Source: Escherichia coli (GTDB taxonomy: Bacteria; Pseudomonadota; Gammaproteobacteria; Enterobacterales; Enterobacteriaceae). Taken from it: 64,000 bases of DNA. The DNA lies in NCBI RefSeq assembly GCF_041248615.1, contig NZ_CP158426.1. One strand, written 5' to 3'. The notes below the pieces were generated by a model. The model was not told the origin of the DNA. It worked only from the letters and a program-made list of their open reading frames with translations, and did not search any database. Below are positions 29,421 through 45,632 of this stretch, in pieces (the first letter of the stretch is position 1; every line of letters starts with the position of its first letter). A program made the position numbers and the translations under genes.

Positions 29421-29506
29421 ATATTTTTTATGTGAAAAATCAATAGATTGAAAAACAGGCGGAAATGGTGTTTCCGGTCTGGCGGAAAAAAGCCTGCCGC
29501 TGAAAG

Positions 29507-29567
29507 CACAACACCGCCTGCAGGCGGTGTTGTTCGTGGCCGGATAAGGCGTTTACGCCGCATCGGC
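29507..29567. terminator. Perfect 13-bp-stem palindrome plus REP element downstream of lafA
   Basis: acaacaccgcctg/caggcggtgttgt followed by gccggataaggcgtttacgccgcatcggc. Confidence 0.55.
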
Positions 29568-30492: not shown

Positions 30493-30926
30493 GATACTGC
30501 TCCTTGGGATTAATCGTTTTCGTTTCGATACCCTGTAAAAACGACACCTCAGGAGCAAACTTAAAATCGCCGTTAAAATTTTTTTGCCACGTATTATCCG
30601 ATGCCACTTTTAGCTAAAAAAAGCAGAGTTTAAATTCAGATAAAAAGATTATTAGCAATATCTGCCACATGGCCAGGTATCAAAATATGTCTTTATCAAA
30701 CGCTTGATATAGTTAAGATTGTCATCAATTATCGCGTTTTGTTCTCAATGTACTGATGCCAAAATTTACATTGCGTTGCAAATAGTACACATTTGGCTAT
30801 TGTACCTGTCCTGTCATTTCGTTACATTTCCACGCCATATAGTGATTAAGAATAATCCTATTACCGTAAAATATTAATTATCACGCAGAAAAATCATCTT
30901 CTCAGGGACGTATAAGACTGTGCTTT

Positions 30927-31820
30927 ATGCAAAGCACTATCAGGAAACATTTATCCCTTGCTAAGGTAAACTCAACTATGAGTATTATTATCAACAACTG
31001 GCGGATGGACCCGTCGCTTAATGCCTTAATACATTGCGAAACGGGTGAAACACGTCGTCTCGGCGAATACCATTTTATTTTGCTGGAAACATTAGCAAAA
31101 AATGCCGATGTGGTTTTATCGCGATCTTATTTATGTGCCGAAGTATGGAAGAACCGTATTGTCGGCGGAAATAGCCTGCCGACGGCGATCCATGCGTTGC
31201 GCGTTGCTATCGACGATGATGGCAAACAACAGAACATTATTAAAACAATTCCGAAGAAAGGTTACTTATGCAATAAAGAGTATGTATCTTTGCCGGAGTC
31301 ATCGCCTGCAGAAGCGCTGATTATTACCGACCAGATACAGGATACAGCCCCAGAAGAGATATCTTCGACTACACCGTATGTACCTGTTAGAAAAAAACAT
31401 AAAGGACTGATGGGGTTAGCGTTGGCCGCAGCTGTTATATTGGTTGGCTCAACCGTGGGGTATTCACACTTGAAAAGTACACCTGACGCTCCACAACTGG
31501 TAAAAGAGTCAATCAACAGTCCAAGAATAAAAATATTTCATCTTAGTTCTGGAAAAGAAAATAATTCCGCACCGTTACTGTCACAAACCCTCGCACCAGG
31601 AAAAGACAAACTCGATAATTTATTGTCAGCGCATAATATGACAATGACAACCTATTATAAATATGTTCGTAACCGACTGGAAAGTGATATTGTTCTGCAC
31701 AACCAGTGCAATGGTAGCTGGCAATTAACTTTTAATGTGGATAGCTGGCAGAATAGCGATATTAATAGCGCGATGTATCAGAATTTAGAGAAGTTGTTAA
31801 ATACTGTGCAGAAATGCTGA
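30927..31820 (+). CDS. Membrane-anchored winged-helix regulator (ToxR/CadC-like)
   Basis: N-terminal OmpR-type DNA-binding domain, single TM segment (LMGLALAAAVILVG), C-terminal periplasmic domain; AT-rich, low-GC gene. Confidence 0.6.
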   Translation: MQSTIRKHLSLAKVNSTMSIIINNWRMDPSLNALIHCETGETRRLGEYHFILLETLAKNADVVLSRSYLCAEVWKNRIVGGNSLPTAIHALRVAIDDDGKQQNIIKTIPKKGYLCNKEYVSLPESSPAEALIITDQIQDTAPEEISSTTPYVPVRKKHKGLMGLALAAAVILVGSTVGYSHLKSTPDAPQLVKESINSPRIKIFHLSSGKENNSAPLLSQTLAPGKDKLDNLLSAHNMTMTTYYKYVRNRLESDIVLHNQCNGSWQLTFNVDSWQNSDINSAMYQNLEKLLNTVQKC

Positions 31821-31835
31821 CGAGTGCCAATATAT

Positions 31836-31868
31836 GCCGGATGCGACGCTAAAGGCGTCTTATCCGGC
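31836..31868. repeat. REP-like palindromic element
   Basis: gccggatgcgacgctaaaggcgtcttatccggc. Confidence 0.55.
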
Positions 31869-31878
31869 ATACCGATAA

Positions 31879-32856
31879 TTACCCCAATAAACTCCTCACC
31901 GTCTGGCTGGAAATTCGCGCCTGACCGTTCACCGCCTGCAATAAAACCTGATAGTTATGATTGGCGCTATCCAGCACGCCGCCGAGATTTTCCGACGCCT
32001 GCACGGCGCTTTCCGTTTGCGGGAAGCGCGACATGCCGTCGATCAACTGCCGCGCCTTTTCCTGCTGTACCGCCATCTGCACACGCTGCTGATTAATGCT
32101 TTCTAACGTCTGAGAAATCCCCGCTCCGCCCTGTTGCAGGCTTTGCACTAAGCGGTCCGCCTGCGACGGTTCGGCAAAGGTTTTTAGTGGCATAAACGCT
32201 GATTTATCACCATCGGTGCGCACGCTTAGGGTGCTTTCAATGTTGGGCCACTGTTTTTCAGTGGTGGAGAAACTTATACCATCGGCGTTTTGATGCATCT
32301 GCACGCCCACGCGGCGCAGGGCGTTGGTCAGCCGCGTTTGATACTGCGCGGCGCTGTCATCCTCAGACAGCATCACCGCCGAAAGCTGAGTCTGCCGCCC
32401 GTCAGAGACGCTGAACATCCGCGTTCCCGGCGTGGGATTGTGTACCAGATTCGCCAGATCCGGCGAGTGAAAGCTCACCCGCGCTTCCCCCTGCAACACT
32501 GGCTGCAACTGGCGGTCCACCGCACCGCCGGAAAGCGCGGTGCGTTTGTCCAGCATCTGCATCAGCGCCGTACTCTGCGCCTGCCCGCCCTTACGCTGGC
32601 TGTGACGGTAATCGAGCAACTGCTGCTCCAGTTGCCCGAGATAATGATCCGCCTGCTGCAACGTGGTGAGCTGGTCGTTAAGCTGCACGCTGTAACGCTG
32701 CGGGCGAGTGGTAATCAGCGGCGAGGCCGGATATTCACTCGCCGTCGCCGGGAGTTTTTGCCGCACCGCCTGAGTGGGCGCAACGGTTGACGACGATACC
32801 GCAGCGCTATGCGCGCCGCCGGTGGTGAGTGACGAAGAAGTAAGTCCGACCTGCAT
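31879..32856 (-). CDS. Flag-2-associated protein of unknown function, co-oriented with flgL homologue
   Basis: 325 aa Gln/Ser-rich, no recognisable enzymatic motif; 16-bp gap to upstream gene. Confidence 0.45.
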   Translation of the reverse strand: MQVGLTSSSLTTGGAHSAAVSSSTVAPTQAVRQKLPATASEYPASPLITTRPQRYSVQLNDQLTTLQQADHYLGQLEQQLLDYRHSQRKGGQAQSTALMQMLDKRTALSGGAVDRQLQPVLQGEARVSFHSPDLANLVHNPTPGTRMFSVSDGRQTQLSAVMLSEDDSAAQYQTRLTNALRRVGVQMHQNADGISFSTTEKQWPNIESTLSVRTDGDKSAFMPLKTFAEPSQADRLVQSLQQGGAGISQTLESINQQRVQMAVQQEKARQLIDGMSRFPQTESAVQASENLGGVLDSANHNYQVLLQAVNGQARISSQTVRSLLG

Positions 32857-32872: not shown

Positions 32873-33802
32873 TTAGAGAACGCTGAATAAATTCAACTCA
32901 CTCACTTTCGAGTAAGTCTTGAGGGTAGCTTCCATTGCTACTTCCAGTCCGGTAAAGGTGATCGACGCCGGGCCGTAATCGAGATCCTGTAATGAACCAA
33001 TCAACTCATCATTAGAAGTAGAGATATCGGTCTGCGCATCGCTCAGCATCGACATGGTGTTCTGCGTCTCGCCGAGCGACGCAATCGAGGCGTTGAGGTC
33101 GTCCGAGGCGGTGTCCACCACGTTAACTGCGTTCTGAATATCGCTCTGCACCTGCGGATCGGCCGGGTCAACGTTTGGGTCTTGCAACTCCTGCGACAGG
33201 GTATTCAGTGTGTTGAGCACATCTAAATTGCTGCCGAAGAAATCGCTCGCCGCCACGTTGGTATCCACTTCCACGCCGTTCGACACCGTGGTCTGGCGGT
33301 GGTCGCTGTTGCCCTGATAGCTGTAGCTGTCGGTCACGCCATCGCCGTCATCGTCCACCGCCACAATCGGCGGCTGATCGTTGATGGTACCGCCAAACAC
33401 GTAATGCCCGTCTTCGTCCTGATAGTTCAGCGCCGCGACCATTGATTCGGTGAGCGACTCAATATCCTGCCCGAGACTTGCGAGCGAATCGGCGGTATTG
33501 GTACCATTCGCCGCTTCCAGCAGGTCGTCGCGCACCGCCAGCAGGCTGTTGTTGACGCCATCAAGAATTGATTCCTGCTGACTTAACCCCGCCGACGCGG
33601 AGTCGATATTGCTCTGATACTGCTCAATCGCCGACTGTTGGCGGTTCAACTGGGTGATGCGCGTGGCGGCGATCGGGTCATCCGACGGCTGCAAAATCTG
33701 CTTGCCGGTTGCCATCTGCTCGACCACATGCGCCAGATCGCCGGAGAGATTATTAAAACTTTGCGTCATCGAGACGTAGGTTTGTTGGGTGGTTACTCGC
33801 AT
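32873..33802 (-). CDS. lfgL: Hook-filament junction protein FlgL (HAP3) homologue
   Basis: Flagellin-like N-terminal domain (DPIAATRITQLNRQQ); start at MRVTTQ. Confidence 0.75.
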   Translation of the reverse strand: MRVTTQQTYVSMTQSFNNLSGDLAHVVEQMATGKQILQPSDDPIAATRITQLNRQQSAIEQYQSNIDSASAGLSQQESILDGVNNSLLAVRDDLLEAANGTNTADSLASLGQDIESLTESMVAALNYQDEDGHYVFGGTINDQPPIVAVDDDGDGVTDSYSYQGNSDHRQTTVSNGVEVDTNVAASDFFGSNLDVLNTLNTLSQELQDPNVDPADPQVQSDIQNAVNVVDTASDDLNASIASLGETQNTMSMLSDAQTDISTSNDELIGSLQDLDYGPASITFTGLEVAMEATLKTYSKVSELNLFSVL

Positions 33803-33816
33803 TTTCGCGCTCCCGC

Positions 33817-35193
33817 TTAGCTGCACATTTCCAGCACCGAATCGAAAATCTCGGCCCCGGCGGAAATGACTTTCAGATTGGCTTCATAAATTTGTTGATA
33901 GGTGATCAGGTTAACCGCCTCTTCGTCCATGCTGACGCCGCTGACGCTGCTCTGCTGGTTTTGCGCTGCGGAATAGACATTGGACGCGGCATCGACTTCC
34001 GTCTGGTTTTGCTGGCTGTAAATGCCGATATTGCTGATGATTGACGAGCACGCCTGCCCGACCGTCACGCTGCCGAGGTTGGCTATTTCCAGCGGTTCGG
34101 TGGAGATATTGATCAGCGCCTGGAGGTTGTCGCTGTTGCCGCTTTCGTCCGGCGAACTGGAGAACGCCAGCTCATCGGCGGTGATATCCGGGTTAACGGT
34201 CAGCGGGCCATCGGCGTTGCTGGCGTCATAAATAAACAGCGGCTCGCCGGGGTTACCGTTGAGATCGTAGCCCTGCGCCAGCTGGTTGTTAACCGCATCG
34301 GCGAACTGCGACGCCATACTGTTGATGGTGTCGGTCAGCGGCGTCAGCACGTCGTTTTGATAATCAAACAGTGCGCCTAATGAACCGCCGGTGTCGGTAG
34401 TCATCGTCGAGGTGGTGCCAGCGAAAGTCAGCGACATGGTCGGCGTGCCGTCGGCGTTGGTTTCCAGCGCGATGGTCGAGCTTTGCTGCCCGCTCACCAG
34501 CGGTTGACCGTTTTTCAGGGTAACGTTGTAGTTGCCCTGGTCGTCGATATTGACCTGCACATCCATCATCCCGCTGAGTTCTTCCACCATCTGGTCGCGG
34601 GCGTCGTACAGCGCGGAGGCGTTATCGCCGTTGGCTTCGGCCTGAGCGATTTGCTGGTTATAGCTGGCGATGCCGCTGGTGAGCGTGTTGATTTGCGACA
34701 CCATCGCCTGCTGCTGGCTGATGATTTCCGTGCTTTGCGAGTCGATGTAATCCAGCGTGTTGTCGATACGCAGCGACAGCGCCCCGGCTTCGCTGATCAC
34801 CTGCTCGCGCAGGGCGGAATCATCAGGGCTGGTGGTCGCTTCGTTAAGGGCGGCGAAGAAGTTATCGAACCCGCCGCTCAGGCTGCTGTTATCGTCGCTC
34901 AGTACCGCTTCCAGTTGCGTGAGATACCCCTGCTGGGTGCTGTAATAGCCGTAATCGCTGGCGGCATACCACACCTGATTCACCTGATACTGGTTAGAGA
35001 CGCGGCGAATGCTGTCGACCTGCACGCCGTTACCGGCGCTGTTTGGCGAACCGCCGCTGGCACCGATGGTGCTGATCTCCGCCACCTGACGGGTGTAGCC
35101 CGTGGTCATGGCGTTGGCGGTGTTTTGCGCCGTGACGTTCAGCTCCACCTGCGCGGTTGATGCCCCGCTGTAGCCGATGTTAATCATGTCCAT
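33817..35193 (-). CDS. lfgK: Hook-associated protein FlgK (HAP1) homologue
   Basis: 458 aa, conserved FlgK N-terminus (INIGYSGASTAQVELNVTAQNTANA) and C-terminus. Confidence 0.85.
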   Translation of the reverse strand: MDMINIGYSGASTAQVELNVTAQNTANAMTTGYTRQVAEISTIGASGGSPNSAGNGVQVDSIRRVSNQYQVNQVWYAASDYGYYSTQQGYLTQLEAVLSDDNSSLSGGFDNFFAALNEATTSPDDSALREQVISEAGALSLRIDNTLDYIDSQSTEIISQQQAMVSQINTLTSGIASYNQQIAQAEANGDNASALYDARDQMVEELSGMMDVQVNIDDQGNYNVTLKNGQPLVSGQQSSTIALETNADGTPTMSLTFAGTTSTMTTDTGGSLGALFDYQNDVLTPLTDTINSMASQFADAVNNQLAQGYDLNGNPGEPLFIYDASNADGPLTVNPDITADELAFSSSPDESGNSDNLQALINISTEPLEIANLGSVTVGQACSSIISNIGIYSQQNQTEVDAASNVYSAAQNQQSSVSGVSMDEEAVNLITYQQIYEANLKVISAGAEIFDSVLEMCS

Positions 35194-35269
35194 GTTGGAT
35201 CCTTACCGGTAAATCGTGCCGGTTAAAAGCGGCGTTAGGTTGGGGATTCTTAAGTTCCTTAAACCGGGT

Positions 35270-35351
35270 GCCGGATGCGGCGTGAACGCCTTATCCGGCC
35301 TACATATGGGCGACTCGTAGGCCTGATAAGACGCGCCAGCATCGCATCAGG
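35270..35351. repeat. BIME: two inverted REP elements between lfgJ and lfgK
   Basis: gccggatgcggcgtgaacgccttatccggcctaca and inverted gtaggcctgataagacgcgccagcatcgcatcaggc. Confidence 0.7.
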
Positions 35352-35368
35352 CACCGAACGTCGGAGCC

Positions 35369-35668
35369 TCATTTATGCTTCGGCGATAACTGCTTCACAA
35401 TCATCGCCGCGATCCCAATCCCGTGCTGCTGCGCTAGGGTGTTACACAACTCATCGTCATAAAACCCCTGCATCATGCGCACCGAATCGCTGTTAAATGG
35501 GTTATCTTTCGAATCAAACAACTCGTTGGTTTTACGCATCTCTTTGAGCATGTTGCGTAAAAAAATCGCCTCAAACTGTTCCGCGGCCTGCCTGATATCA
35601 TTGGCCTGAACCTTCGGCCCCATTAACGCATCGCTGCCGTCAATCCCGCCACTGGCATTCACTTTCAT
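35369..35668 (-). CDS. lfgJ: FlgJ-like rod-binding protein (N-terminal domain only)
   Basis: 99 aa with rod-binding motif (AAEQFEAIFLRNMLKEMR); no muramidase domain. Confidence 0.7.
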   Translation of the reverse strand: MKVNASGGIDGSDALMGPKVQANDIRQAAEQFEAIFLRNMLKEMRKTNELFDSKDNPFNSDSVRMMQGFYDDELCNTLAQQHGIGIAAMIVKQLSPKHK

Positions 35669-36783
35669 CAGATCACCTCCAGGTCGGCATCCAGCGCGCC
35701 CGCTTCATGCAGCGCCTGCAAAATCGACATAATGTCGTCCGGCGTCGCGCCTAAACTGTTCAGCGCATTGACCAGCGTTTTCAGGCTGCTCGACTCCGGC
35801 AAACTCACCACGCCAGGGCGCGCATGATTCACCGCGATATTACTCTGCGGCGTTACCGCCGTGCGCCCGCCCGCAAAGGCATTCGGCTGGCTGACGTTGC
35901 TGGTTTCGTTAATCGAAACGGTCAAACTACCGTGCGACACCGCCGCCGCGTGTAGCGCAACGCCATCGCCCATCACCACCGTGCCGGTACGCGAGTTAAA
36001 CACCACGCGAGCGCGGATTTTCTCCGCCTGCACCTGCACATCGTCCAGTTGCGACATAAACGCCACCCGCGCACCGGGGCTGGTAGGCGCGCGCACGGTG
36101 ACGTTGGTGGAACTCTGCGCCGTGGCAATGCCGCCAAACGAGGCGTTGATCGCCGCTGCAATATTATTGGCATCTTTAAACGACGGGCGTTTCAGATTGA
36201 GCGTGATGGTATCGCCCATCTGAAAATCGCTGGGGATCTCACGCTCCACCGTTGCGCCGTTGGGAATTAACCCGGCGGTCGGCGTGTTAACCGTCACGCT
36301 GGAACCGCTGGCCCCGGTGGCGTTCATCCCGCCCACCACCACGCTGCCCTGCGCGAGGGCATAAACTTCGCCATCCGCGCCGTGCAACTGCGTCAGCAAC
36401 AAAGTGCCGCCACGAATACTTTTCGCATCGCCAATCGACGAAACGGTGACATCAATGGTCTGCCCGCGCGAGTACATCGGCGGCAGCGTGGCGCTCACCG
36501 CCACCGCGGCGACGTTTTTCACCTTCGGGTCGATTTTATTCGGCAACTGCACGCCAAACTGGCGCAGCATATTGGTGATGGTCTGGTTAGTGAATTTGAC
36601 CTGGTTTTTATCGCCCGTACCGTCGAGGCCTACCACCAGGCTGTAGCCCACCAGTTGGTTTTCACGCACGCCCTGTACGTTGACCAACGACTCCAGCGAT
36701 TGCGCCAGCGCCACACCGGGCAGCGCCAGGCTTACGGCGATCGCTGCGGCCTTTATCCAGTTTTGCATTGCACTCTCCGGCAT
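35668..36783 (-). CDS. lfgI: P-ring protein FlgI homologue
   Basis: 371 aa, signal peptide, conserved [27 protein letters not shown]. Confidence 0.9.
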
Positions 36784-37448
36784 TAAATCGGGAACAGAGG
36801 ATGGTTAAACAGCCGCGTCAGCCAGCCTGCGGCGTTGGCGTCGCTTAACGCGCCGCGTCCGGCATAGGAGATACGGGCGTCGGCGATCCGCTGGGAGGAA
36901 ACCGAGTTGTCGTTCTGAATATCGTCGGCGCGTACCAGGCCGCTTAAGCGGATGTACTCATCGCCCTGGTTGAGGGTCAGCCATTTTTCGCCGCGAATTT
37001 CCAGGATGCCGTTGGGCTGCACCGCATGGACGGAAACGGTGATCTCCCCGCGCAGGCTGTTCTGCTGCTGGGAAGTGGCGCTGCCGTCAAAGTCGCGGTT
37101 GGCATCGATGGAGCCGGAAAGCTTATCTTTGGTGTGACCAAAAATGGTCGGTGCGCCGATGTCGACGGTGTTGTTTTTACCGAAGTTGGTTTTCGCCTGT
37201 TTGCTCGACTGGGTGGATTCTTCGAGGATCACCGTCAGGATATCGCCCACGCGGTAAGCCCGCCGATCGGCGGTGAGCGACCAGTTGTAGCCGGTTTCAA
37301 ACACGCCCCCGGCACGCCCGTCTGCCGGAGGCGGTGCTTCGGTTTTCGGTGGCGCAAAGTATGCGTCGTCTTTTTTGACCAGAATGGCCTGCGATTCACA
37401 CCCGCTAAGCAGGGGAAGCAGCGCCACCAGCCAGAGATAATTTTTCAC
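36783..37448 (-). CDS. lfgH: L-ring lipoprotein FlgH homologue (start reassigned to GTG at 37448)
   Basis: Lipobox LLSGC; the first 25 codons of the ORF-track call are encoded by a REP element and are likely not translated. Confidence 0.8.
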
Positions 37449-37485
37449 GTTCTGCCTGTTTAAATACAGTGAGTTATGCGCTTTT

Positions 37486-37523
37486 GTAGGTCGGATAAGA
37501 CGCGTCAGCGTCGCATCCGACAT
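37486..37523. repeat. REP element between lfgG and lfgH
   Basis: gtaggtcggataagacgcgtcagcgtcgcatccgacat. Confidence 0.6.
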
Positions 37524-37530
37524 TTCGGCC

Positions 37531-38316
37531 TTACAGCGTCTGGCTGATGTACTGCAACATATCGTCCGCCGCCGACACCATTTTGGCGTTCATCTCGTAA
37601 GCGCGTTGCACCGTAATCATCGCCACCATTTCGTTGACGATATCCACGTTCGAGCCTTCCAGCGCATTGTCCTGCAAGGTGCCAAGCCCATCTTCGCCCG
37701 GTACGCCTTCGGTCGGCTGACCGCTGGCAGCGGTTTCCAGATAGAGGTTGTCGCCTTCAGCGGAAAGCCCCGCCGGGTTGGCGAAGTTCACCAGCGTCAG
37801 TTGCCCTAACTCAGTCACGTCGCTGTCGCCGGGTAAGATCGCTGTCACCGTGCCGTCCTCACCAAACGCAACATTCGTCGCCCCCGCCGGAACGTCGATT
37901 TCCGGCTGTAACGGCAAGCCTTGCGAGTTGGTCAGCACGCCGTCGGCGTTCACCTGCAAGTTGCCGTCGCGGGTATAGGCGATATCGCCGTTGGCCTTTT
38001 GCACCTGCAAAAACCCCTGCCCCATAATGGCGACATTCATCGCGTTGTCGGTGGTTTCGACGTTGCCTTCGGTGAAGGTTTTCTGAGTGCCAACAATGCG
38101 CACGCCGCTACCGAATTGCAGCCCGGTCGGCATGATGTTGTTCTGGTCGAGCATCGCGCCCGGCGCTTCCTGGGTCTGGTAGAACAGATCCTGAAACATC
38201 ACCCGGTCGCGCTTGAAGCCGGTGGTGTTAACGTTGGCGATGTTGTTGGCAATCGCGCTCATTTCAGCATCCTGCGCCGAGAGGCCGGTTTTGCTGATCC
38301 ATAATGCTGCGTTCAT
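37531..38316 (-). CDS. lfgG: Distal rod protein FlgG homologue
   Basis: 261 aa, conserved rod N-terminus (SKTGLSAQDAEMSAIANNIANVNTTGFKRD) and C-terminus. Confidence 0.9.
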   Translation of the reverse strand: MNAALWISKTGLSAQDAEMSAIANNIANVNTTGFKRDRVMFQDLFYQTQEAPGAMLDQNNIMPTGLQFGSGVRIVGTQKTFTEGNVETTDNAMNVAIMGQGFLQVQKANGDIAYTRDGNLQVNADGVLTNSQGLPLQPEIDVPAGATNVAFGEDGTVTAILPGDSDVTELGQLTLVNFANPAGLSAEGDNLYLETAASGQPTEGVPGEDGLGTLQDNALEGSNVDIVNEMVAMITVQRAYEMNAKMVSAADDMLQYISQTL

Positions 38317-38342
38317 GGTGGTTTATTCCCTGGTGTCTGTTA

Positions 38343-39080
38343 TCACGAGCCGCGCAATAAGCGGTTGCCCGCGTCGCTGATATCTTCGGCGGTTTTCATC
38401 ATCTTGATCTGCGCTTCAAACTGGCGGTTCATGGCGATGGACGACATCATCTCGCTCACCGCCGAGACGTTACTGCCCTCCAGAAAACCGCCGCTAACTT
38501 TGATGTTTTCATCACGCTGGGCCGGAACGCCGTCGGCAGTTATCAGCATCCCTTCAGGATTTTTCGCCAGGTTAGCGACAGGAATATCCACCAGCTTCAG
38601 GCGGTCGATATCCATGGTTGCAGTCACGTCGCCGTCATCGGGCGTCACCGACAGCGTGCCGTCGCTGCCAAACGAAGCAATGGCGTTCGGCGGCAGAATG
38701 ATCGGGCCGTTATCCCCCAGCACCAGATTGCCGTCGATGGTCAGTTGCCCCTGGTCGTCCTGCTGAATGTTGCCGTTGCGGGTATACACTTCGTTGCCGT
38801 TTTTATCCTGCACCGCAATGTAACCCGCGCCCTGAATCGCCACGTCCAGCGGGCGTTCGGTTTTCTCCGCTACACCCGTGCTGTCGTTCACGCCGCTGGC
38901 CCCTTCCTGCGCCATATAGCGCGTGTCGAAGCCGCCGCCTTTCACCTTGTCGTTGGTCGCCATCGCCATGTCGGCGCGAAAACCGTTGGTGTTGACGTTC
39001 GCCAGGTTGTTGGCGCTAATCTGCTGCTCGTACAGGGTCTGAGAAGCACCGCTCAGGGCGGTATAAATCAGGCGGTCCAT
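38343..39080 (-). CDS. lfgF: Proximal rod protein FlgF homologue
   Basis: 245 aa rod family. Confidence 0.85.
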   Translation of the reverse strand: MDRLIYTALSGASQTLYEQQISANNLANVNTNGFRADMAMATNDKVKGGGFDTRYMAQEGASGVNDSTGVAEKTERPLDVAIQGAGYIAVQDKNGNEVYTRNGNIQQDDQGQLTIDGNLVLGDNGPIILPPNAIASFGSDGTLSVTPDDGDVTATMDIDRLKLVDIPVANLAKNPEGMLITADGVPAQRDENIKVSGGFLEGSNVSAVSEMMSSIAMNRQFEAQIKMMKTAEDISDAGNRLLRGS

Positions 39081-40282
39081 TACATTGCCTGGAACAGCGC
39101 GTCATCGAGCTGCGTGCTGGTGGCGATAACTTTGGTGTTGGCCTGATAGTTACGCTGGGCGGTCATCAGGTTGACCAGTTCGCTGGTGATATCGACGTTA
39201 GAGCTTTCGAGCACGCCCGACGATAGCGTGCCGCAGGTGCCGGAGCCGGGAACGCCAATCAGCGGGGTGCCGGATTCCCCGGTTTGTACCCACGCGGTGC
39301 CGCTCACCGCTTCGAGTCCGTTTTCATTCGGGAAAGTCGCCAGCACCACCTGGCCCTGCAACATGCGCTCGCCGTTGCTGTAGGTGGCGTAAACTTTGCC
39401 ATCGTCATCGACCTGCACACCGTTTTGCGTTGCGGAGGCGTAGCCGTTGGCGGCGTTGGTGGTGACCGAAAATTCAGAGCCGTATTGCGTACAGGTGGAG
39501 TAATCGACGGTTAAGTCGATGGGTGCGGCGGCGTCGGTCTGAAACTCAATGGTCTGTGGCGTGGTTGGCGAGGTCAGCTTCCCGGTGTTCGGGTCGAAGG
39601 TTAATGTCGTCGCCGGAACGCCAGTCTGCTGCTGACCGTCGAAGGTGTACTGCACTTCCCAGGTGTTGTCGCTGGTTTTGGTGAAATACTGGCATACCGA
39701 GTGTTCGTTACCTAATGAGTCATATACCGTGGTGGTGTAGCTGTCGGTATACGAGCTGCTGTTGGTCGCGTCGAACGGTACGGTTGTACGGTCTATAGCC
39801 GCATCGCTGGCATCGAAGTTAGCGGTAAAGGTCAGGCTGCTGCTGGCCTGCGCCGGGATATTGCCGGTTTTGATCTGGATATCGGTGACCGTACCGGTTT
39901 GCAGAGTGCCCGTGTCATCGACCGGATAACCCTGTAAATAAGCGCCCGAGGCGTTGACAATATAGCCGTTTTTGTCGGTTTCAAACGATCCGGCGCGGGT
40001 ATAAGAAATGTTGCCCGCGCTGTCGCAGGTAACAAAAAAGCCGTCGTTGTTAATCGCCAGATCCAGCGCGTTACCGGTGGAGACCAGCGAACCGCCGCGC
40101 GAAATACTTTGCGCGGTGCCTGCCACGCTGACGCCCATCGCCTGACTTCCGGCATACATGGCTGAAAACTGGGTGGTCATCGACTTATAGCCTACCGTTC
40201 CGGCGTTGGCGATGTTGTTACTGATCCCGTCGAGCTGTTCGTTAACGGCATTCAGCCCCGTTGCGGCAATTTCATAACTCAT
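39080..40282 (-). CDS. lfgE: Hook protein FlgE homologue
   Basis: 400 aa, conserved hook termini. Confidence 0.85.
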   Translation of the reverse strand: MSYEIAATGLNAVNEQLDGISNNIANAGTVGYKSMTTQFSAMYAGSQAMGVSVAGTAQSISRGGSLVSTGNALDLAINNDGFFVTCDSAGNISYTRAGSFETDKNGYIVNASGAYLQGYPVDDTGTLQTGTVTDIQIKTGNIPAQASSSLTFTANFDASDAAIDRTTVPFDATNSSSYTDSYTTTVYDSLGNEHSVCQYFTKTSDNTWEVQYTFDGQQQTGVPATTLTFDPNTGKLTSPTTPQTIEFQTDAAAPIDLTVDYSTCTQYGSEFSVTTNAANGYASATQNGVQVDDDGKVYATYSNGERMLQGQVVLATFPNENGLEAVSGTAWVQTGESGTPLIGVPGSGTCGTLSSGVLESSNVDITSELVNLMTAQRNYQANTKVIATSTQLDDALFQAM

Positions 40283-40328
40283 TGTTTCTTCCTGTTAATT
40301 CAAATTTTGACAGCGTGCCCGTTGTTTT

Positions 40329-40409
40329 GCCGGATGCGGCGTGAACGCCTTATCCGGCCTACAAAACCATGCAGTTTCATGTAGGCCTGATAAGCGAAGC
40401 GCATCAGGC
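40329..40409. repeat. BIME: two inverted REP elements between lfgD and lfgE; first unit identical to the one at 35270
   Basis: gccggatgcggcgtgaacgccttatccggcctaca ... gtaggcctgataagcgaagcgcatcaggc. Confidence 0.7.
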
Positions 40410-40425
40410 AATTTGGCACCGGACA

Positions 40426-41139
40426 TCACGCCACATCACTGTCGGCATCGGGTACGCCAAACTGGCTAATCATGGTGAACGGCACTTCGCCCACGCCTGC
40501 AACATTGAGCACCGGAGAGCTGCCGTCGAGCGGGATGCGCACATCTTCCACTTCGCCGGAGACTTCAATCGGCACCTCTTCTTCCCCGGTGTTGGTGACC
40601 ACCGAGACGTCGTAATCGCCCGGCGGGATACCGTAATCCGCCGGATTAATCGAGAAATCGACCTGGCCTGGCCCGACGGACGAACTGCCTTCCGGGATCA
40701 GCGACACCGTATAGTCATCGCCTGCGGCATCGGTAAAGTGGAGATCGGCGGTGGTACAGGCGTCGTCAAGCGTGGCGCGACCATTAATGGTCTGGTCGCT
40801 CACCTGCAAGGCGGTGGTCTGCACCATAATGTCGTCACCCACCAGGTTGCCGAGCGCCATCACCTGAATGTTGCTCATCAGCACCGCGTTGGTGTTGGCC
40901 TGCACACTCATCTCTTCCATCATCGCCACCTGCGCCATCGAAGAAAGCTGGTCGATATATTCGGTGGCGTCAGTCGGGTCGGTCGGGTCCTGGTTTTGGA
41001 TCTCAGCGACAAACAGCGTCAGGAAAGTATCAACGGGCGAGCTATCGCTGCTACTTTGCGTGTCGCTGGCCGCCACGTTGTTGCTTTCCGCCGTGGCGGT
41101 CGGCTGCGGCGATTGCGCATTCAGCGCCAGGGTATTCAT
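40426..41139 (-). CDS. lfgD: Hook capping/scaffold protein FlgD homologue
   Basis: 237 aa, conserved TFLTLFVAEIQNQDPTDP. Confidence 0.8.
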   Translation of the reverse strand: MNTLALNAQSPQPTATAESNNVAASDTQSSSDSSPVDTFLTLFVAEIQNQDPTDPTDATEYIDQLSSMAQVAMMEEMSVQANTNAVLMSNIQVMALGNLVGDDIMVQTTALQVSDQTINGRATLDDACTTADLHFTDAAGDDYTVSLIPEGSSSVGPGQVDFSINPADYGIPPGDYDVSVVTNTGEEEVPIEVSGEVEDVRIPLDGSSPVLNVAGVGEVPFTMISQFGVPDADSDVA

Positions 41140-42914: not shown

Positions 42915-44339
42915 ATGTCTGAATTTGAATTGCTCGTGAAAGATCTTCTTTTAAAATCAGAAGAAGACGAGAAAAAGCGACAAGAAAAAGATCGAGAATT
43001 AATTTCAAAGGTTCTTGAAATCTATGATCAAAAATATGTTGCAGAACTCCTACGAAAAGTAGGAAAAAATGAATGGAGCAGAGAAACACTTAACCGTTGG
43101 ATAAATGGTAAGTGTAACCCTAAACAATTAACTTCTGCTGAGGAAACTTTACTTCGAAAGATGCTCCCAGAACCTCCCGAACATCATCCTAACTATACAT
43201 TTCGTTTTATTGATTTATTCGCAGGGATTGGTGGTATTCGTAAAGGCTTCGAAAATATTGGTGGGCAGTGTGTTTTTACTAGCGAATGGAATAAAGAAGC
43301 GGTAAGAACCTACAAAGCTAATTGGTTTAATGATGAACTAAATCATAAATTTAATCTTGATATACGAGAAGTCACTTTAAGTGATAGAGATGATGTTTCC
43401 GAAATGGAAGCCTATAATCATATAGACAAAAATATTCCAGATCATGATGTCCTTCTGGCCGGTTTTCCATGTCAACCCTTTAGTCTGGCTGGGGTAAGCA
43501 AGAAAAATTCTCTGGGGCGTGCACATGGTTTTGAATGTGAGGCACAAGGAACACTATTTTTTGATGTCGCTCGAATTATTAAATCAAAAAAACCAGCTAT
43601 TTTTGTGCTTGAGAATGTGAAGAACCTTAAAAGTCATGATAAAGGTAAGACTTTTAAAGTCATCATGGAAACACTCAATGAATTAGGGTATGAAGTCGCC
43701 GATGCTGGTGTGACTGGCTCAGATGATCCTAAAATTATAGATGGAAAACATTTTTTACCCCAACATCGTGAGCGTATAGTGTTGGTAGGATTTCGTAGGG
43801 ATCTAAATATTCACAAGGATTTCACGTTACGAAATATTAACCGCTTTTACCCTCAAAACAGGCCAACATTTGGTGAATTATTAGATCATGATGTTGACGA
43901 CAAATATATTTTGACTCCAAGGTTATGGGAATATCTTTACAATTATGCAAAAAAACATGCAGCAAAAGGAAATGGATTTGGTTTTGGTTTAGTGGATCCT
44001 AAAAATCCAGATAGTATCGCACGAACGCTGTCTGCTCGTTACCATAAAGATGGCTCTGAAATACTGATCGATCGTGGCTGGGATAAGGCTGTCGGTGAAA
44101 TCGATTTTAGTAATCCAGCGAATCAAGAGAATCGACCAAGAAGACTGACACCTCATGAATGTGCCAGGTTAATGGGTTTTGAAAAACCAGGGGGAAGACC
44201 TTTTAGAATACCTGTATCAGATACTCAAGCTTATAGACAATTTGGGAACTCAGTTGTTGTGCCAGTATTTGAAGCTGTAGCAAGATTACTAGAACCGTAC
44301 ATACAAAAGGCTGTCAGCATGCAAGTTATTAACGATTAA
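42915..44339 (+). CDS. DNA cytosine-5 methyltransferase, M.EcoRII/Dcm family (predicted CCWGG specificity)
   Basis: Motif I FAGIGG, motif [10 protein letters not shown], motif VI ENV; near full-length match to recalled M.EcoRII/Dcm; AT-rich. Confidence 0.9.
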
Positions 44340-44426: not shown

Positions 44427-45632
44427 TTATACAAAATCTTCATACAGCGTTATTAACTGTGTGATAAAACCCTCTAACGTTAATAATCCCTCCCTGATTT
44501 CCTCCGGATATTTTTTATGAAGAGGGGAAGGTACAACCAAGGTGACACCTTCAGCTCTCATTTCGTTAAATTGAGCAACTGAGACACCCTCTTGTAAGGT
44601 AAACAAATATATTTTGTTGATTTTATTTGCTTCATTGAGTGCCTGACGCCACCGATCCTTACATGTTGTTTTTACAGCAAGCATACGGAGTTTTTCTCTT
44701 GGAAAGTGATCATCATGGTAAGCTGCCGCTGATGGAAAAAGAAAATCGGGTTTCTTTTTTCCTTCAGTAATACATTGAGTAGCAAAATGATGCAGTCCAT
44801 GCTCAATAAAAATTTGCTCAAGATGTAGCTCCAGTGATTTCCCGGCTCGAGATTTTCTTCGATTACTAACAGAGTTAGCCATAGCTATAAAATCATCTAC
44901 AGAACCAAACCCTTGACGGATGATGTCCAGTACGTGAATTTCTTCAACCATTAGAAAGAGATCATATTCAATACGGCGGCGTTCTAAAAGTTGGTCATCT
45001 GGACTGGTTACGCCTGTTGGGTAATAACCCGCAGCATATTGAATAATCTCTAAGCCAGAAGGAAAGCTATGTTTCCAGCTTTCCGGAATAACATATTCCT
45101 TTTGAGAGATTTTTGGCCTTGATGCGAGTACACCAAGTATTTCACTGGCAGGCCCAAACATTAAAGTTCCAGGAATGATCTCCCCAATAGCTGATTCCAG
45201 TACATCCTCTTCTTCTGGGCTAACACAAACCCATACATCAACACTTTTGCTGTCTCTCCCTGGCTCATGTTCAAACGCAAGCACAGACAAAGCACCTGTA
45301 TTTTCCGGATCCTGTAGGGGACTGCCAGCCCCCCACCGAGTGATGCGTTTTTCATTTCTTGTTTGCCCGAAATACTTATTATTGTAGTAAATAGCGCGAA
45401 CCTCACTGTCTACACATTCATGAGAGGAATAAGTTGCGCGCAATAAAACCGAAGGATTTTTTTCTGACGTATGATCTATAGATGGGAAAAGTTCAGCGAC
45501 GATACCAGAAGGGATATATACCCCCACTTGATGCCCTCCTGTTGCACCAGTGTCGTTTGCTGAAAGACGTTTAATATAGAGATAGTTGTTACCACCGACC
45601 TTATCAAGCAGCCAATCTTGTAATCCTGACAT
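44427..45632 (-). CDS. Type IIE restriction endonuclease, EcoRII family
   Basis: 401 aa; N-terminus YIKRLSANDTGATGGHQVG and catalytic domain match recalled R.EcoRII closely. Confidence 0.9.
   Translation of the reverse strand: MSGLQDWLLDKVGGNNYLYIKRLSANDTGATGGHQVGVYIPSGIVAELFPSIDHTSEKNPSVLLRATYSSHECVDSEVRAIYYNNKYFGQTRNEKRITRWGAGSPLQDPENTGALSVLAFEHEPGRDSKSVDVWVCVSPEEEDVLESAIGEIIPGTLMFGPASEILGVLASRPKISQKEYVIPESWKHSFPSGLEIIQYAAGYYPTGVTSPDDQLLERRRIEYDLFLMVEEIHVLDIIRQGFGSVDDFIAMANSVSNRRKSRAGKSLELHLEQIFIEHGLHHFATQCITEGKKKPDFLFPSAAAYHDDHFPREKLRMLAVKTTCKDRWRQALNEANKINKIYLFTLQEGVSVAQFNEMRAEGVTLVVPSPLHKKYPEEIREGLLTLEGFITQLITLYEDFV

Follow-up and report, generated by a model that had tools for sequence, protein, structure and literature searches.

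The 64,000-nt stretch of Escherichia coli DNA analyzed here (assembly GCF_041248615.1, contig NZ_CP158426.1; hereafter the window) holds a complete Flag-2 (lateral flagella) locus, running from dinB to yafL with core genes to the left, and the only long intergenic gaps of its lfgB–L cluster are occupied by copies of repetitive extragenic palindromic (REP) units, either solitary or paired in bacterial interspersed mosaic elements (BIMEs). Gene boundaries were taken from the RefSeq record NZ_LT599825.1 of E. coli NRZ14408, which matches the window with 100% identity (window coordinate = record coordinate − 4163545). The following genes of the cluster are annotated there, all of them intact:

40426–41139, minus strand: flgD (lfgD)
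39080–40282, minus strand: flgE (lfgE)
38343–39080, minus strand: flgF (lfgF)
37531–38316, minus strand: flgG (lfgG)
36783–37448, minus strand: flgH (lfgH), WP_000800864.1, 221 aa, GTG start
35668–36768, minus strand: flgI (lfgI)
35369–35668, minus strand: rod-binding protein (lfgJ)
33817–35193, minus strand: flgK (lfgK)
32873–33802, minus strand: flgL (lfgL)

Read in the direction of transcription, the gaps between these genes carry the following elements, with the lfgF/lfgG spacer included:

40381–40410, minus strand: Z1-type REP unit, TGCCTGATGCGCTTCGCTTATCAGGCCTAC on the mRNA strand, beginning 16 nt past the lfgD TGA (40428–40426)
40363–40380, minus strand: Z1/Y linker of lfgD/E, 17–18 nt
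40329–40363, plus strand: Y-type REP unit of lfgD/E, inverted in the mRNA, with a sub-threshold naRNA4 match at 40324–40359
38317–38342, minus strand: lfgF/lfgG spacer, 26 nt, without REP in the window
37486–37521, minus strand: single REP unit of lfgG/H, GTCGGATGCGACGCTGACGCGTCTTATCCGACCTAC on the mRNA strand, with a sub-threshold naRNA4 match
35317–35353, minus strand: Z2-type REP unit of lfgJ/K, TGCCTGATGCGATGCTGGCGCGTCTTATCAGGCCTAC on the mRNA strand, beginning 15 nt past the lfgJ TGA (35371–35369)
35304–35316: Y/Z2 linker of lfgJ/K, 13 nt
35270–35304, plus strand: Y-type REP unit of lfgJ/K, inverted in the mRNA, with sub-threshold naRNA4 matches

The three filled gaps are 143 (lfgD/E), 82 (lfgG/H), and 175 nt (lfgJ/K) long. 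Along the mRNA, lfgD/E presents the Z1 unit, the 17–18-nt linker, and an inverted Y unit that ends 46 nt before the lfgE ATG (40282), and lfgJ/K presents Z2, the 13-nt linker, and an inverted Y; the single unit of lfgG/H starts 9 nt past the lfgG TAA (37533–37531), with 37 nt between its end and the lfgH GTG. The alternation of Y with an inverted Z unit makes BIMEs of 40329–40410 (Z1) and 35270–35353 (Z2), while 37486–37521 is a solitary unit and not a BIME. No REP hairpin overlaps the ribosome-binding site of the next gene, be it lfgE, where AGGAAG is left free, or lfgH.

The first-pass annotation had placed REP-containing intervals at these three junctions, each between co-directional minus-strand genes, and this is borne out by the RefSeq layout and by a scan with the REP core CTTATCNGNCCTAC, which occurs at 35290 (+), 35317 (−), 37486 (−), 40349 (+), 40381 (−), and 31859 (+). 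It had also described the first units at 35270 and 40329 as identical over 35 bp. Indeed, the 35-nt Y unit GCCGGATGCGGCGTGAACGCCTTATCCGGCCTACA is present exactly twice in the window, at 35270–35304 and 40329–40363, and not once in 100 dinucleotide shuffles, even with three mismatches allowed. Of the 5426 complete E. coli genomes, 5425 have matches to the REP parts of the query, with a median of at least 32 places per genome; in K-12, the Y and Z2 units on either side of rayT are nearly identical to those of the window. Within the E. coli REP/BIME family, which has 355 annotated loci in K-12, the Y unit is canonical and Z1 and Z2 lie about one base from K-12 copies; the palindromic hairpins, the extragenic location, the alternating orientation within pairs, the high copy number, and the variability between strains are all shared, and no difference is essential, the variant stem GTCGGAT/ATCCGAC of the lfgG/H unit being one. 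On this sequence evidence, the identity of the elements as REP/BIME copies composed of canonical E. coli Y, Z1, and Z2 units is certain.

Searches for other signals gave little. Rfam at gathering thresholds returned nothing in the REP region (only IS009 at 1427–1627 and a tRNA-Thr in the window), and the sole Rfam signal at the three sites is the REP325-derived naRNA4, sub-threshold and seen at an E-value threshold. A consensus scan of the three spacers for promoters and terminators found no σ70 promoter-like site and no intrinsic-terminator-like U-tract. Folded in the mRNA sense, the spacers reach −50.7 (lfgD/E), −24.9 (lfgG/H), and −60.9 kcal/mol (lfgJ/K), more stable than their shuffled counterparts (z = −3.0, −3.1, and −4.1, respectively); for lfgG/H, the energy comes mostly from the REP hairpin.

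The count of three intra-operon REP sites given by the first-pass annotation stands only in part. The three sites are present, and the window contains two further units:

31836–31872, plus strand: extra single REP between a convergent regulator gene (30978–31820, plus strand) and a hypothetical gene (31879–32856, minus strand)
29538–29564, minus strand: degenerate Y-type REP, GCCGATGCGGCGTAAACGCCTTATCCGGCC, directly past the lafA stop, found by short-word BLAST

All seven units thus lie at 29.5–40.4 kb of the 64-kb window, a clustering that was observed post hoc. In strain 042, the interval matching 31836–31872 holds a RelE/ParE toxin-antitoxin pair. The degenerate REP past lafA precedes a hairpin (AACACCGCCTGCAGGCGGTGTT) that resembles a terminator and whose U-tract is weak (29490–29564). 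In addition, the third site, lfgJ/K, is probably an operon boundary and not an intra-operon position.

This reading of lfgJ/K is given by a motif just downstream of the BIME:

35226–35253, minus strand: predicted σ28 (LafS)-type promoter of lfgKL, TTAAGAAT-N12-GCCGCTTT

The motif is separated by 16 nt from the lfgJ/K BIME on its upstream side and by 32 nt from the lfgK ATG (35193) on its downstream side. It is found in 29 of the 50 loci with a J/K gap of at least 50 nt, including those of Escherichia, Citrobacter, Pseudescherichia, Leminorella, Yersinia, and Pantoea, among which the sequence between the half-sites varies freely and the flanks diverge, and the lfgK site is the only match to TAAG-N15-GCCGNT in the window. 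Judged against the σ28 (FliA/LafS) reference (a TAAAG-like −35 and a GCCGATAA-like −10 at 11–12-nt spacing), it looks like a σ28 (LafS) promoter. A similar sequence, TTAAGTTT-N11-GTCGTTTT, stands upstream of lafA at 30564–30538 and is a candidate LafS promoter as well. The flgKL genes of the primary flagellar system have a class-3 promoter, to which the predicted lfgKL promoter would be the parallel. Because this conserved σ28-like promoter lies just downstream, the lfgJ/K BIME is probably the 3′ end of the lfgB–J unit. A σ54 site considered by eye in the same gap (GGCACG-N4-ACCG) lacks the −12 GC and was rejected.

The lfgG/H unit has a consequence for gene calling. The mechanical open reading frame (ORF) list gives lfgH as 36783–37523 (246 aa, ATG), and its first 25 codons (MSDATLTRLIRPTKAHNSLYLNRQN) read through the REP:

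37449–37523, minus strand: 25 spurious codons at the 5′ end of the long lfgH ORF, with its ATG at 37523

The naive ORF finder lengthens the gene because the lfgG/H REP holds an in-frame ATG. The first-pass annotation had suspected that the REP was misread as the first 25 codons of the L-ring lipoprotein and had favored the GTG at 37448 as the true start, and every line of comparison agrees. Against the NCBIfam equivalog NF009072, the long ORF reaches 431.7 bits (cut-off 323), and positions 1–220 of the model fall on its residues 27–246. Read from the GTG, the protein begins with a standard lipoprotein signal peptide whose lipobox, L-S-G-C, places the Cys at residue 17, just past the start as had been proposed. 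Comparison of homologue N termini, the check suggested at the outset, covered the 80 Flag-2 loci found by scanning species-representative genomes with LfgH, across which the start is conserved; the lipobox lies at most 30 residues from the homologous start in 81 of 86 homologous loci. Conservation into Citrobacter covers the GTG and the aacAGGCAGaac before it, with AGGCAG upstream, but not the sequence further upstream, and in three E. coli loci (L002, L008, and L089), a 1-nt indel shuts the upstream frame four codons before the GTG. We conclude that lfgH begins with the GTG at 37448, as it already does in RefSeq, and with this start all units are extragenic between annotated coding sequences. 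That the 246-aa LfgH is real, the REP encoding a genuine N-terminal extension, is already effectively refuted: no stop codon interrupts the frame that begins with the ATG at 37523, which has AAGG 6 nt upstream, but the family model begins only at residue 27, the extension is frameshifted shut in other E. coli strains and not present in other genera, a hydrophilic leader of 25 residues would shift the lipobox Cys to residue 42, and RefSeq annotates the GTG. The start of lfgI also differs between sources, being at 36783 in the mechanical list (an ATG overlapping the lfgH stop) and at 36768 in RefSeq.

The Flag-2 locus is present in about 1275 of the 5426 complete E. coli genomes. Gap lengths among these were obtained with flank-only queries (150 nt of each neighboring gene, no REP sequence) in genomes taken at even steps down the ranking, and are compared below with those of strain 042, the Flag-2 prototype:

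lfgD/E gap, 59 genomes: 22–23 nt (no REP) in 11, 84 in 10, 143 in 6, 152 in 2, 159 in 6, 262–271 in 22, 438–439 in 2
lfgG/H gap, 39 genomes: 70 nt in 2, 82 in 25, 202–206 in 8, 271 in 3, 329 in 1
lfgJ/K gap, 44 genomes: 175 nt in 5, 181–182 in 7, 188–189 in 27, about 205 in 2, 253 in 1, 420–421 in 2
Strain 042: D/E 23 (no REP), F/G 178, G/H 206, J/K 175 nt

At lfgD/E, the copy number ranges from 0 to about 6 units, with natural alleles of 0, 1, 2, and 4 units, and 11 of the 59 sampled genomes (19%) have no REP; no REP-free allele of lfgG/H or lfgJ/K was seen among the 39 and 44 E. coli genomes sampled. Across strains, a site may hold from 0 to about 11 units. The lfgF/G junction, empty in the window, is REP-filled in most of the other strains compared, with one unit at a length of 78 nt or three at 178 nt. 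The window allele (…CAGGGAATAAACCACC ATG) is similar to that of Citrobacter, and its ribosome-binding site is good; that of the REP-bearing alleles (L002 and L086–L088; …ACACGGAATTTACCACC ATG) is weaker. Since the flanking bases differ too, the two kinds of allele are not related by simple insertion.

Alignment with locus L007 identifies the lfgD/E linker of the window as a shortened form of the 34-nt linker of the 159-nt alleles, which we take to be the L motif of BIME-1. The central 16 nt between two CTGCA repeats have been lost, together with the core ATTCAAtacaTTG, similar to that of integration host factor (IHF) sites and one mismatch away from WATCAANNNNTTR. With a Y-Z1 linker of 17–18 nt and no IHF-like core, the window pair differs from BIME-1 (RIP/RIB) and falls outside that class.

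The lfgG/H junction shows other rearrangements. Its 202–206-nt alleles (E. coli FDAARGOS_1337, L002; E. whittamii, L010; and E. coli 042, L092) have an extra segment of about 120 nt, by which the initial 20 nt of the REP (GTCGGATGCGACGCTGACGC) are duplicated and within which lies a REP-like unit enclosing a long hairpin (TGGACGGT...ACCGTCCA); this segment may be a small mobile element targeting the REP. Escherichia sp. E1V33 (L006) has another GC-rich palindromic repeat (CCCTCACCCCGGCCCTCTCCC...GGGAGAGGGCTAGGGTGAGGGG) in place of the REP, presumably related to the BoxC element, which it resembles; the junction has therefore been used by another repeat family too.

Beyond E. coli, REP cores among the 80 Flag-2 loci are confined to Escherichia-type loci (Escherichia spp., E. 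whittamii, a metagenome-assembled genome labeled Citrobacter with 99% LfgH identity, and Pseudocitrobacter vendiensis) and to a few Citrobacter lfgG/H gaps. Here, junction lengths rest on neighboring genes placed by tblastn with the best high-scoring segment pair per gene only. Citrobacter, the nearest outgroup (91–96% LfgH identity), has gaps of 22–27 (D/E), 30 (F/G), 56–69 (G/H; 102 in C. youngae ATCC 29220), and 97–100 nt (J/K), and typical values in more distant taxa are 12–40 (D/E), 11–35 (G/H), and 3 or 60–110 nt (J/K). When aligned with Citrobacter, the BIMEs stand out as clean extra blocks. In the lfgG/H gap of Citrobacter, the corresponding position is already taken by a short hairpin, GCCGGAT...ATCCGGC, which makes lfgG/H an older palindrome site. 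These alignments show that, lfgG/H excepted, the REPs entered the gaps in the Escherichia lineage. Within that lineage, the lfgJ/K gap ranges from 85 nt and empty in E. whittamii to 794 nt with 11 cores in Escherichia sp. MOD1-EC7003.

The enzyme that mobilizes REPs may be missing from the window strain. In K-12 and 042, rayT lies between yafL and lfhA flanked by BIMEs, and it is detectable in 3575 of the 5426 complete E. coli genomes. The yafL-lfhA gap of the window measures 97 nt (63709–63805) and contains a REP stub (CCGTCCTAC) beside yafL and a GC-rich hairpin (CCCCTCGCCCCTTTGGGGAGAGGG); judged from this usual position, the only one looked at, the strain may lack rayT.

We regard the Flag-2 units, ordinary REP/BIME copies, as probably tolerated passengers with incidental tuning and no built-in part of flagellar regulation. 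The first-pass annotation had stated that REPs can stabilize mRNA or partly terminate transcription, and for REPs in general, this is established: they stabilize upstream mRNA by blocking 3′-to-5′ exonucleases or act as partial Rho-dependent terminators, REP325 being both; about 40% of K-12 REPs lie between tandem genes, the 146 REP-bearing tandem pairs have a median log2 upstream/downstream expression of 0.96 versus −0.09 for controls, and canonical REPs carry the strongest expression bias genome-wide (bioRxiv 10.64898/2026.03.23.713779). By analogy, the Flag-2 units would be transcribed within the lfgB–J mRNA and fold into stable hairpins that impede 3′-to-5′ exonucleases and cause partial Rho-dependent termination, as at other tandem-gene REPs. 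Expression would tilt modestly, and in a strain-specific manner, to the upstream genes, lfgBCD over lfgE and those that follow and lfgE–G over lfgH–J, and the lfgJ/K pair would form the 3′ end of the lfgB–J unit ahead of a separate σ28-type lfgKL promoter. The effect on Flag-2 expression is likely a modest, context-dependent upstream bias.

Several points weigh against this reading. The variance between REP sites is wide, with no uniform effect on half-life (bioRxiv 10.64898/2026.03.23.713779), and the RNA-level effect at the Flag-2 sites is extrapolated from REPs elsewhere. Flag-2 may be poorly expressed under most conditions, in which event an RNA effect would seldom be relevant. Finally, lfgG/H and lfgJ/K are filled in every sampled E. 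coli genome, which could reflect selection; age and common descent explain this fixed occupancy equally well.

If the passengers were purely neutral, with no measurable effect on Flag-2 expression, the REPs would simply sit where gaps tolerate them. We find this unlikely, although a real possibility: the presence/absence and copy-number polymorphism would fit, many REP sites show little or no effect (bioRxiv 10.64898/2026.03.23.713779), and in a window strain without rayT at its usual position, the REPs may be inert relics. Spacers that fold into stable hairpins of about −25 to −61 kcal/mol, the genome-wide bias of canonical REPs, and the lack of any REP-free lfgG/H or lfgJ/K allele in the E. 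coli sample all speak against complete neutrality.

At the opposite end, the D/E, F/G, G/H, and J/K REPs could jointly constitute a strain-specific control of lateral flagella, in which 0 to about 11 units attenuate downstream genes in graded fashion and LfgG is lowered by ribosome stalling and trans-translation. REPs lying less than 15 nt past a stop codon reportedly stall terminating ribosomes and trigger trans-translation, a finding attributed to Liang, Rudd, and Deutscher in Mol Cell of 2015; the lfgG/H REP, at 9 nt, fits this distance, while lfgD/E and lfgJ/K, at 15–16 nt, are borderline. Were this improbable scheme true, the variable number of REP units would contribute to determining in which E. 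coli lineages working lateral flagella can be built.

The proposal of the first-pass annotation that hook and ring proteins may owe their stoichiometry to the REPs is not supported. Taken as an adaptation, it would have the REPs selected to set the amounts of hook, rod, and ring components from one polycistronic mRNA, and it can draw on the upstream-biased expression that goes with tandem-gene REPs, on lfgG/H and lfgJ/K being filled in every E. coli genome sampled, and on the REPs that the flgB–J operon of the K-12 primary system (flag-1) also has at flgF/G. However, the orthologous gaps are REP-free in nearly all non-Escherichia Flag-2 loci, the lfgD/E gap carries from 0 to about 6 units and none in 11 of 59 genomes or in 042, and lfgF/G is empty in the window and filled elsewhere. 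The hook protein is the most abundant structural subunit, at about 120 copies per flagellum, and the rod and cap proteins number about 5–6; with upstream genes favored at lfgD/E, less hook protein would be made relative to the cap and proximal rod proteins, opposite to the need. Such elements, lineage-specific and variable in copy number, make selected stoichiometry control quite improbable.

A role at the DNA level is less probable again. BIMEs have been described as binding gyrase, IHF, Pol I, or HU, and could act in supercoiling or nucleoid organization and not through RNA, for which the IHF-like core in the linker of the 159-nt lfgD/E alleles of other strains might be cited. The window linker has lost precisely this core, and no feature of the locus points specifically to such a role. 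At the genome scale, neither REP-dependent nucleoid compaction nor REP-REP contacts were found (bioRxiv 10.64898/2026.03.23.713779).

Several known systems are close to the Flag-2 units. The yjdM-yjdN operon (with REP325) and malE-malF have intra-operon REPs that act as mRNA stabilizers and partial Rho-dependent terminators, and, like these, the Flag-2 units lie between co-directional, co-transcribed genes, in the 3′ untranslated region of the upstream gene; REP325 comprises 12 units, as compared with one or two per Flag-2 site in the window. In K-12 flag-1, the 171-nt flgF/flgG gap holds a canonical inverted Y REP with a degenerate partner (6580–6690 of locus L090), that is, at the junction that is empty in the Flag-2 locus of the window and REP-filled in that of other strains. 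The REP parts of the query also match the K-12 region annotated as yahH, which we take to be an ORF call made of REP sequence and, if so, an artifact of the same kind as the long lfgH ORF. A literature search on REPs in Flag-2 found nothing relevant, and the comparative paper on Flag-2 (PMC6993521) does not mention them.

Nothing at the locus goes beyond known REP biology, and no new kind of element or regulatory principle emerges from it. Its significance is mainly one of annotation hygiene, as REP hairpins can supply in-frame starts that lengthen ORF calls. It is also a small, clear example of REP/BIME turnover in an accessory operon, occupancy differing between 042 and the window strain, and the natural lfgD/E alleles with 0, 1, 2, and 4 units are possible test material for REP dose effects on polycistronic mRNAs.

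Two other features of the window may be recorded. A DNA cytosine methyltransferase gene (42915–44339, plus strand) and a type II restriction endonuclease gene (44427–45632, minus strand) are inserted between lfgA and lfgM, in agreement with De Maayer et al. (2020, PMC6993521), who described an EcoRII/Dcm cargo for 21 Flag-2 loci of Escherichia; strain 042 is without this insert, and flgA and flgM are adjacent there. Outside the Flag-2 locus, IS009 (RF02111) is a full-length Rfam match of 187.8 bits at 1427–1627 on the minus strand, between ykgJ and yagU.

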